From contig OX597824.1 in assembly GCA_951406725.2 (NCBI GenBank), positions 67,890,001-67,954,000 of the forward strand: 64,000 nt of DNA. The letters are read 5' to 3'. The notes beneath the pieces are model-generated. The model did no database searches. It had not been told where the DNA came from and saw nothing but the letters and a program-made list of their open reading frames with translations. Shown in pieces: positions 55,716-58,271 of the stretch (within the stretch, counting starts at the first letter, position 1; every line of letters starts with the position of its first letter). Made by a program: the position numbers and the translations under genes. The stretch is from Octopus vulgaris (Eukaryota).

Positions 55716-56062
55716 TCGCCATACTAATATGGCATTCTTATAAAAATAAAAAAAAGCTGTCCGCTTATTAGCTATGAGGCCATCGCCTTAAGTTAGCTAT
55801 TTGATACACAAACTGTATCCATATAACCTTCGAACAAGGGAGGTCAGTCGCTCCACACTACTTGACCGGCAGCTACAGACGCGTTTCGGGGTATTGCCCC
55901 TTTTCAATGCAGCGTAGTGTGGAGCGACTGACCTCCCTTGTTCGAAGGTTATATGGATACAGTTTGTGTATCAAATAGCTAACTTAAGGCGATGGCCTCA
56001 TGGAGCTAATAAGCGGACAGCTTTTTTCTTATTTTTATAAGAATGCCATATTAGTATGGCGA
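55716..56062. mobile_element. Hairpin element (~145-bp near-perfect arms) with a hammerhead in the loop
   Basis: 55716-55861 is reverse-complementary to 55914-56062; TA-flanked. Confidence 0.85.
55872..55913 (-). ncRNA. Minimal type I hammerhead ribozyme, U3-A8 core variant
   Basis: GCUGCA-UUGAAAA-GGGG(CAAUA)CCCC-GAAA-CGCG-UC-UGUAGC. Confidence 0.8.
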
Positions 56063-56219
56063 TAACTATTATTTTCCGGGAACGCTGCCGCTGTTCTCTT
56101 TTAGAGAGACTTAGTTATTTTAATATTTCTATTATATATAGATATATATATATATATATATATATATATATATACATAGTTGAGAAAGTTGGTGTGTGAA
56201 AGAACGTGGTAGAATATAT

Positions 56220-56942
56220 AGAAAATAGTAAAAAGTGAAAAAACTACAGAAGGCTTGTTTTAAAAGATTAAAAAATATATTTGAGTCATTATATCAGAAG
56301 AATGTTATAAAATATTTTCATATAGTGACATAGATTTTGAAGAAATTACCGGTTTCGTGTTAACTTTTCAAATTTCTCAAAACATCGTGTTATGACTTCG
56401 TTATGAAGTGTAAAGTAGAGTTCCAGGTAAGGGGAGGTAATAAGTGATTTCTTCCGGTGTAAGGGAGATAATCGCCTTATATTTCTTGCTTCTTTTACTT
56501 AATGGGGTGAGTTTCTCTGTATAAGAATGTTAGAGTGGTTAAGTTTGGGCTTATATTTTTCAATGTGCTATTGGAACACCAACACAAATTAGACTAAACA
56601 AGGAAACATTCTTCATCAAACTTAACCACTCTAACATTCTTATACAGAGAAACTCACCCCATTAAGTAAAAGAGGCAAGAAATATAAAGCGATTATCTCC
56701 CTTACACCGGAAGAAATCACTTATTACCTCCCTTTACCTGGAACTCTACTTTACACTTCATAACGAAGTCATAACACGATGTTTTGAGAAATTTGAAAAG
56801 TTAACACGAAACCGGTAATTTCTTCAAAAACTATGTCACTGTATGAAAATATTTTATAACATTCTTCTGACATAATGACTCAAATATATTTTTTAACCTT
56901 TTAAAACAAGCCTTCTGTAGTTTTTCACTTTTACTATTTTCT
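56220..56942. mobile_element. Hairpin element (~325-bp arms), each arm carrying a minimal hammerhead
   Basis: 56220-56546 is reverse-complementary to 56618-56942. Confidence 0.85.
56787..56823 (+). ncRNA. Minimal hammerhead, U3-A8 variant (mirror copy 56341-56377 on -)
   Basis: AGAAAU-UUGAAAA-GU(UAAC)AC-GAAA-CCGG-UA-AUUUCU; stem II only 2 bp. Confidence 0.65.
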
Positions 56943-57618
56943 CTCTCTCTCTCTCTCTCTCTCTCTATATATATATATATATATATATATATATTATTAT
57001 AGCCTCAGGGCGACCAAAGCTTTTTGAGTAGATTTCGTACACAGAAACTGAAAGGAGACTCTCATATATATGTCTATATTTGCATTTGTCTCTGTTTTCT
57101 TCCCTGCATTGCATAACAACCGATTTTGCTGTGTTTACGTTACTATAATCTAGAGTTTCGACGAAAGACACCGATAGAATAAGTCCTAGGCTTACAAAGA
57201 ATGAAGCCTGTGTTCGATTTGTTCCACCGTATGTGGTGCTTCAGCTTGGTCGCATTTAGATGATGACTGAAACAAGTAAAGGAATACCATTTTAATACTG
57301 TGCGAGGCCGGGTGTCTCAGCTAGTCTATATATATATATATATATATATATATATATATATATATATATATATGTATATATATATGTATATATGTATGTA
57401 TATATATATATATATATATATATATATGTATGTATGTATATATCTATGTATATATATATATATATATATATATATATATATATATATGTATAAGGGTGAA
57501 AAGGAACACACGAGTTGATATATATGAAAAAACAACTCAAAATAGAAAATGCTAAAATAAATTTAGAAAAATTAGAAGAAAAGTTTTCTTCTAATTTTTC
57601 TAAATTTAATTATTTTAT

Positions 57619-57666
57619 CGTTACAGTTGAAAAGGTCTCAAAATGACCGAAACCGGTACTGTAATG
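57619..57666 (+). ncRNA. Minimal hammerhead, U3-A8 variant, inside a small hairpin element (57520-57720)
   Basis: CGUUACAG-UUGAAAA-GGUC(UCAAAAU)GACC-GAAA-CCGG-UA-CUGUAAUG. Confidence 0.8.
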
Positions 57667-58271
57667 TTCTTTATAAAATTATTTTAGCATTTTTTCTATT
57701 TTGACTTGTTTTTTCATATATATATATATATATATATATATATATATATATATATATATATATATATATATATATATATATATATATATATATATATATA
57801 TATATGTATGTATGTATATATATATATATATATATATATATATATATATATATATATATATATATACTATCGCCCGGCATTGCTCAGGTTTGTAAGGGAA
57901 ATAACTATAAAGCATTTTTAGAGAGTTATAGCCAAAAAATATAAAAAGATGGAAAAAAAATGATGGCAATTTTTTTTTTAGTTAAAAAAGGTGGAGTTGC
58001 GTCCCCTAGACAGTTTCCGGTTTGTGTATCTGATTCTCGACCCCATGTCGAATTTATCGATTTTTTTCAGAACTGGGGGAACTTTTCAAAATTTTCGCTG
58101 CGTTAGTTTTGAATTATGACATTGGGCTATGTGTGTGTCAAGTTTCATCATAATCGGTTGAAAGCCGTGGTCATAGGGTACAAGCAAACATATATATATA
58201 AACACGCATAGACAAATTTATATAGAGAGAGATGTATGTATGTATAAATATATATATATGTATTATATATA

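Follow-up and report, generated by a model that had tools for sequence, protein, structure and literature searches.

A descriptor search of the window (the whole 64-kb stretch of Octopus vulgaris DNA analysed here) detected four hammerhead folds, and in each of them the core reads UUGAAAA. The descriptor required a stem I of at least 4 bp, a stem II of at least 2 bp, GAAA, a palindromic 4- or 6-mer and UH, positions 3, 7 and 8 being left free. The E1 fold is located at 55872-55913 on the minus strand: stem I (6 bp) is formed by 55913-55908 with 55877-55872, and is followed by the core (55907-55901), a stem II of 4 bp, GAAA (55887-55884) and CGCG as helix III, with a predicted cut after the C at 55878, in a GUC site. 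The E2 fold, on the plus strand (56786-56824), has a 7-bp stem I, its core at 56793-56799, a stem II of only 2 bp, GAAA at 56808-56811, CCGG as helix III and a predicted cut after the A at 56817, in a GUA site; a second E2 fold, identical to the first and with the same 7- and 2-bp stems, lies on the minus strand at 56340-56378. The E3 fold (57619-57666, plus strand) combines an 8-bp stem I, a core at 57627-57633, a 4-bp stem II, GAAA at 57649-57652 and CCGG, and its predicted cut falls after the A at 57658, again in a GUA site. The hammerhead folds and the core that the first-pass annotation had proposed for this region are thus present, and such folds are not equally frequent in shuffled sequence, since 60 of 60 block-wise dinucleotide shuffles of the window gave no descriptor match.

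All four motifs contain U4-G5-A6, A9, G12-A13-A14, A15.1-U16.1 and H17, together with the G10.1-C11.1 pair and stems I and II, and the Watson-Crick pair between positions 3 and 8 is U-A in the four of them. Stem II starts directly after A9 in E1, E2 and E3, the extra unpaired base being absent. The stems covary between families and, as had been noted, they pair, but part of the 8-bp length of stem I in E3 is owed to a change private to the window copy; in the family, 3 bp are followed by an A.A mismatch and then by further pairs. For the palindromic helix III sequences ACGCGU and ACCGGU, predicted duplex energies are -7.5 and -8.3 kcal/mol, respectively. The predicted minimum-energy fold of two E1 copies is a double hammerhead (-31.9 kcal/mol), and in the predicted two-copy fold of E3 helix III forms between the molecules, as do both stems II. 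For E2, the predicted monomer fold costs +5.1 kcal/mol and the predicted two-copy fold lacks stem II. Dimers of Penelope hammerheads were reportedly the subject of a study by Lunse et al. in 2017. In an Rfam scan of the window, none of the rows listed (150 of 191) is a hammerhead family, in agreement with the earlier suggestion that searches built on CUGANGA would miss these motifs.

The E1 hammerhead belongs to a 5'-truncated copy of a 362-nt tandem retrozyme unit (55714-55918, minus strand), 96-97% identical to the units of the arrays at loci L043 and L050. A second truncated unit copy, inverted, ending in (TA)n and without hammerhead (55914-56137, plus strand, 97% identical to L043), creates the E1 hairpin. 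An array of the E1 unit has a period of 362, 5.5 copies and 4 complete hammerhead motifs. No frame of 120 aa is listed for L043; E1 codes for nothing, yet the motif is found in every tandem unit. The E1 hammerhead has 884 matches in the genome, the first 100 of which are all U3-A8, and the family keeps all core bases, G10.1-C11.1, stem II and the palindrome. The insertion geometry resembles that of Penelope. A helper element for E1 was not found among four Penelope 3' ends, to which its similarity was limited to low-complexity words.

A second tandem retrozyme family, with a period of 359, the canonical core CUGACGA and a stem II resembling that of E1, was observed at L044 and L053; this C3-G8 counterpart is about 49% identical to E1 over the aligned part. 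Locus L104, 65% like E1, was considered as a U.G retrozyme family linking E1 to the C-G array, but it has a single exact match in the genome, so that a family is not shown. Part of the E1 unit is present in 20 of the 22 public runs listed, none of these holders being recorded as RNA, and head-to-tail joints between units occur in all four run contig sets examined, guessed-RNA and other contigs alike, so that circles are not separable from genomic tandems in these assembled contigs, which cannot show RNA ends or strand.

E2 is a Penelope-like 3' end (56561-56942, plus strand, identified by tblastn and blastn), and comprises a remnant of the endonuclease C-terminus and a pseudo-LTR. The remnant (56558-56656, plus strand; tblastn 60.5% over 38 aa, E 1e-7) is 38 codons long and is located 137 nt ahead of the hammerhead. 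E2 is about 80% identical to the 3' ends of a second Penelope-like family (blastn 79% to L025), and an inverted copy of the same 3' end occupies 56162-56565 on the minus strand, the two forming 309-nt arms that are 98% complementary. E3 (57579-57717, plus strand, 94% identical to L084) is a 3' end too, from a Penelope-like family that is young, and runs out into (TA)n; sequence comparison revealed short inverted pieces of it, without hammerhead, at 57518-57578 (minus strand). At L084, the hammerhead sits 666 nt behind a frame encoding RT and GIY-YIG.

Both parent proteins are encoded in a single frame, with RVT_1 scores of 31.4 and 32.5 bits (cut-off 29.6) together with a C-terminal GIY-YIG whose E values (0.0012 and 0.019) are below the cut-off in significance; a C-X4-C-X2-C linker separates RT and EN in the parent protein of E3. 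The two proteins are 57% identical in amino acids. E2 and E3 therefore come from sister families, and the description of the three elements as unrelated has to be given up; these two likely inherited the U3-A8 core from a common source. The E3-type hammerhead was on the coding strand in 28 of 30 loci chosen by protein, and many of the 150 copies scored in this family have 784-aa open frames at 99% identity. The E3 hammerhead has 1,981 genome matches, with U3-A8 in the first 100 without exception, and all core bases, G10.1-C11.1, stem II and the palindrome are kept. Among the 1,540 matches of the E2-related family, 90 of the first 100 are U3-A8 and 10 are U3.G8.

The pseudo-LTR with hammerhead was seen in tandem as well as inverted arrangements for the parents of E2 and E3, including three head-to-tail element copies 4.4 kb apart at L138. 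In the window, the hairpin of each of the three elements is made of a 3' fragment and an inverted truncated copy abutting it back to back, within (TA)n. Hammerheads of different families are neighbours elsewhere too, at distances of 0.1-2.7 kb in L009, L014, L103, L104, L126 and L217, so that three within 2 kb would need no special cause beyond shared targets, and this clustering probably arises through shared (TA)n targets. The window also contains a 558-bp tandem array at about 51694-54263, with 4-5 copies 99-100% identical and an inverted part, which is found in L065 and L196 as well; neither a hammerhead of the present type nor a Penelope protein match was found in it.

Across the 2.8-Gb genome, the pattern TTGAAAA-N6-20-GAAA-SSSS-TH had 11,643 matches, versus 361 for a reversed-pattern control. 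The genome search for the 3-8 variant proposed by the first-pass annotation thus gave a 32-fold excess. Of the first 100 matches listed, 97 have a palindromic SSSS, these copies not being independent. The other versions of the pattern gave 3,591 matches versus 511 in the control for CTGANGA, 922 versus 532 for CTGANAA and 1,330 versus 887 for TTGANGA, and a canonical C3-G8 pattern restricted to GCGC gave 369 versus 13. The figure of 3,591 was rejected as a fair comparison: it is inflated by a stemless string in a LINE-like reading frame, which accounts for 75 of the first 100 canonical matches, and the true C3-G8 motifs are fewer. Such true motifs exist in this genome, for example in the tandem arrays L044 and L053. 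Since three quarters of those rows are stemless, most motifs whose helix III has four G/C bases carry the U3-A8 core, by a ratio extrapolated from the rows of contig 1. Two copies of the LINE-like string, CUGAAGA...GAAAGGCCUC, are in the window itself, at 2189 and 61826 (both minus strand), where it mimics the canonical core without stems.

CCGG, CGCG and GCGC are all used as helix III palindromes across families. The U.G intermediates are multi-copy, 16 of the first 100 TTGANGA rows being two exact sequences. Among the first 100 CTGANAA matches, the C.A rows belonging to hammerhead families occur once each, and the single C.A string that is repeated and contains a palindrome lacks stem I. A further multi-copy family, with the core UUGACAA (U3-A8, C7) and an A/U-rich stem II, was observed at L009:233 and L014:1256 (both minus strand) and in L217; no Penelope frame was found adjoining it at these three loci.

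Families were compared instead of copies, because copies are not independent. In 16 representatives, picked by hand and including the three motifs reported at first, the pairing between stem I and its own partner covered 68 positions, versus a mean of 14.8 when partners were permuted, and none of 20,000 permutations reached this value. The eight U3-A8 representatives considered separately gave 35 versus 9.3 (p 0.0001). Stem covariation therefore supports selection on the hammerhead when families are compared, though such support does not extend to all lineages.

Two groups of elements depart from the intact core. In the E2-related family, a tree of 26 rows (20 different) placed the U3.G8 rows in one clade (89/98) among U3-A8 lineages. 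Most members of this clade, whose loci (L048, L049, L103, L126-L129 and L134-L136) contain near-intact frames, lack one base at the cut site. The other group belongs to a third Penelope-like family, the protein of which is 39% identical to that of E3. In 27 of its 30 best loci (L179-L205, on several contigs) GAAA is replaced by GCAA and the 10.1-11.1 pair is missing. The GCAA motif has 208 exact matches in the genome, and many copies of this youngest subfamily have 775-aa open frames. A13 is needed for hammerhead cleavage, in line with the consensus of the core, and the GCAA subfamily likely represents a dead hammerhead in a spreading element; cleavage rates for A13C or U3-G8 were looked for in the literature and not found. 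The spread of this young subfamily argues against a ribozyme being needed in every lineage. The selected variant of the first-pass annotation is supported between families but not in the U3.G8 clade and the GCAA subfamily.

To place the changes at positions 3 and 8, unrooted trees of about 200 endonuclease residues were used. On a tree of 10 rows, the U3-A8 third family is joined (98/96) by the C3-G8 family of L168, for which L211 and L212 confirm the state; a topology with all U3 rows together was rejected (p-AU 0.023). An earlier set of 15 rows gave a p-AU of 0.00025 and included two rows with the frame opposite the motif; five rows were dropped from it (two inverted, one short, one long-branched and one near-duplicate), and one representative was swapped. 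On the endonuclease tree, then, the U3 families are not a single clade, and these trees show that the 3-8 pair changed at least twice, in directions that unrooted trees do not give.

The variant core itself is already in print. Cervera and De la Pena (2014, PMC4209133) described U3-A8 for Schistosoma mansoni, in the Penelope hammerheads of its Cercyon elements, counting about 1,300 such matches and about 2,000 canonical minimal motifs, and the alignment in their supplement gives UUGAAAA for S. mansoni, CUGAAGA for S. japonicum and U3.G8 for Saccoglossus. The claim of an undescribed ribozyme class is thereby withdrawn. In that alignment, the mollusc entries (Lottia and Crassostrea) are canonical and no cephalopod is among the entries; an additional base, unpaired and placed between A9 and stem II, is usual in that paper but not universal, a shrimp entry being without it. 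The dimer assays of the same paper concerned the family min-HHRSm1, which it does not identify as the U3-A8 one, and showed low activity. The octopus motifs share with the Cercyon variant the type I architecture, the pseudo-LTR, the palindromic dimer helix III, G10.1-C11.1 and UUGAAAA. In contrast to Cercyon (PMC4209133), their helix III palindrome is 6 nt long rather than 4, a length shared with the variants of shrimp, fly and mosquito, they have no extra base after A9, their stem II is short (2-5 bp) and U3-A8 is the majority core of the genome. A covariation from C3-G8 to U3-A8 in several natural hammerheads, for which in vitro activity is cited, was also described by Perreault et al. (2011, PMC3088659), where a 2-bp stem II is tolerated as well. 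Unlike those variants, the octopus ones are dimer-type motifs of animal retroelements, and a single genome holds over 11,000 matches.

The parents of E2 and E3 resemble the Neptune-clade elements of Craig et al. (2021, PMC8557442) in their RT, C-X4-C-X2-C linker, C-terminal GIY-YIG and 3' hammerhead, and in the inverted 5'-truncated copies and the insertion in microsatellites, both described there for Penelope-like elements, whereas the window copies differ from the Neptune elements described in being short 3' remnants. By these features the parents may be Neptune-type; the linker is common to Neptune and Nematis (PMC8557442). E1, with its non-coding 362-nt tandem unit, one type I hammerhead in each unit and its occurrence as dispersed monomers, dimers and short arrays, is like the animal non-LTR retrozymes (PMC7229834; Li et al. 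2026, 10.64898/2026.07.22.740005), units of 350-390 bp being reported in mussel (PMC7229834). It is unlike them in its U3-A8 core, for which the passages of PMC7229834 searched give no retrozyme example. Animal retrozymes have been tied to pseudo-LTRs, and one of nine predicted frog retrozyme dimers was cleaved (10.64898/2026.07.22.740005). A search of the partly available literature on hammerhead or retrozyme with octopus found no description of the present families, which does not establish their absence from print.

How far the octopus motifs are still ribozymes can be judged against other readings of the same data. They may descend from real hammerheads and now be carried along as passengers: in an AT-rich genome, drift from C to T and from G to A would have produced UUGAAAA in ribozymes of which the autonomous elements have no further need. 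The two changes are both transitions from GC to AT, and A is found at position 7 too. The third family can be read as a series that starts from intact C3-G8 (L168, L211 and L212), passes through U3.G8 and U3-A8 forms in which the 10.1-11.1 pair is broken, and reaches GCAA in its youngest members, near-intact frames occur in the U3.G8 clade nested within the E2-related family, and Naiad elements thrive without hammerheads (PMC8557442). However, drift alone would not favour a pairing intermediate, and it is U.G that is found in multiple copies, C.A in hammerhead families being confined to singletons among the first 100 matches. Moreover, the E1 and E3 families have lost none of the core, G10.1-C11.1, stem II or palindrome, and E1, which is non-coding, retains the motif in every tandem unit. 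We consider this explanation unlikely.

Far less likely still is a reading in which the pseudo-LTR contains a conserved signal for protein binding or promoter function, its likeness to a hammerhead being no more than a resemblance. The weak stems of E2 and of the third family would fit such a signal, as would the low in vitro rates of Penelope hammerheads, and the authors of PMC4209133 leave other functions open; but all of stems I, II and III differ from family to family with pairing kept, three different palindromes serve as helix III, and C3-G8 relatives are present in the same genome. As to chance folds in AT-rich, repeat-rich DNA, a hammerhead-like string does arise by chance in the LINE frame, twice in the window. 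Such an origin for the motifs is refuted by the shuffles, by the excess over the control pattern and by their fixed position behind Penelope frames, and we give it practically no weight.

The folds and their families, the presence upstream of RT and GIY-YIG frames in the same orientation, the tandem arrangements, the inverted truncated copies and the (TA)n flanks are best explained, with good confidence, by type I minimal hammerheads with a U3-A8 pair, carried on 3' fragments of two Penelope-like families and one retrozyme family, whose parents likely process tandem or read-through transcripts to RNAs of unit length by cutting as dimers. Such transcripts would bring two motifs together, and the two copies are predicted to pair via the 6-nt palindrome (ACGCGU or ACCGGU) into helix III. 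Cleavage after GUC or GUA would then free unit-length RNAs, perhaps circularised and subsequently reverse transcribed by the Penelope protein; the cleavage and circle steps are taken from the literature (PMC4209133, PMC7229834, PMC6765202). The window copies are truncated insertion products, likely with no role of their own. As their motifs span the cleavage site, the templates were likely uncut or religated RNA there. The U3-A8 pair is compensatory with respect to C3-G8 and was likely reached by way of a U.G wobble, and its earlier interpretation as a compensatory pair of type I minimal hammerheads is borne out.

A broader scenario is put forward tentatively, and we would not yet favour it over its negation: the 3-8 pair may have switched between C-G and U-A more than once, both in the retrozyme and in Penelope lineages that are separate, by way of U.G intermediates that multiply, while one young autonomous subfamily spreads with a dead GCAA core, the ribozyme being required by retrozymes and some Penelope families and dispensable in others. 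If true, this genome would be a natural experiment on the need of Penelope elements for a hammerhead.

Altogether, the motifs are real and well supported and their kind is already in print, so that their novelty had been overrated and the gain with respect to ribozyme classes is small. Added by the octopus genome are U3-A8 as the majority core, U3 families that do not form one clade, multi-copy U3.G8 subfamilies and a young GCAA subfamily. Most motifs in the octopus genome would escape hammerhead or retrozyme counts in which CUGANGA is obligatory. The existence of subfamilies with intact, wobble and broken cores matters more than the ribozyme class. The role of hammerheads in endonuclease-bearing Penelope elements has been called unclear (PMC8557442), and young sister subfamilies that differ in this way are directly comparable, which makes the function of the Penelope hammerhead testable.
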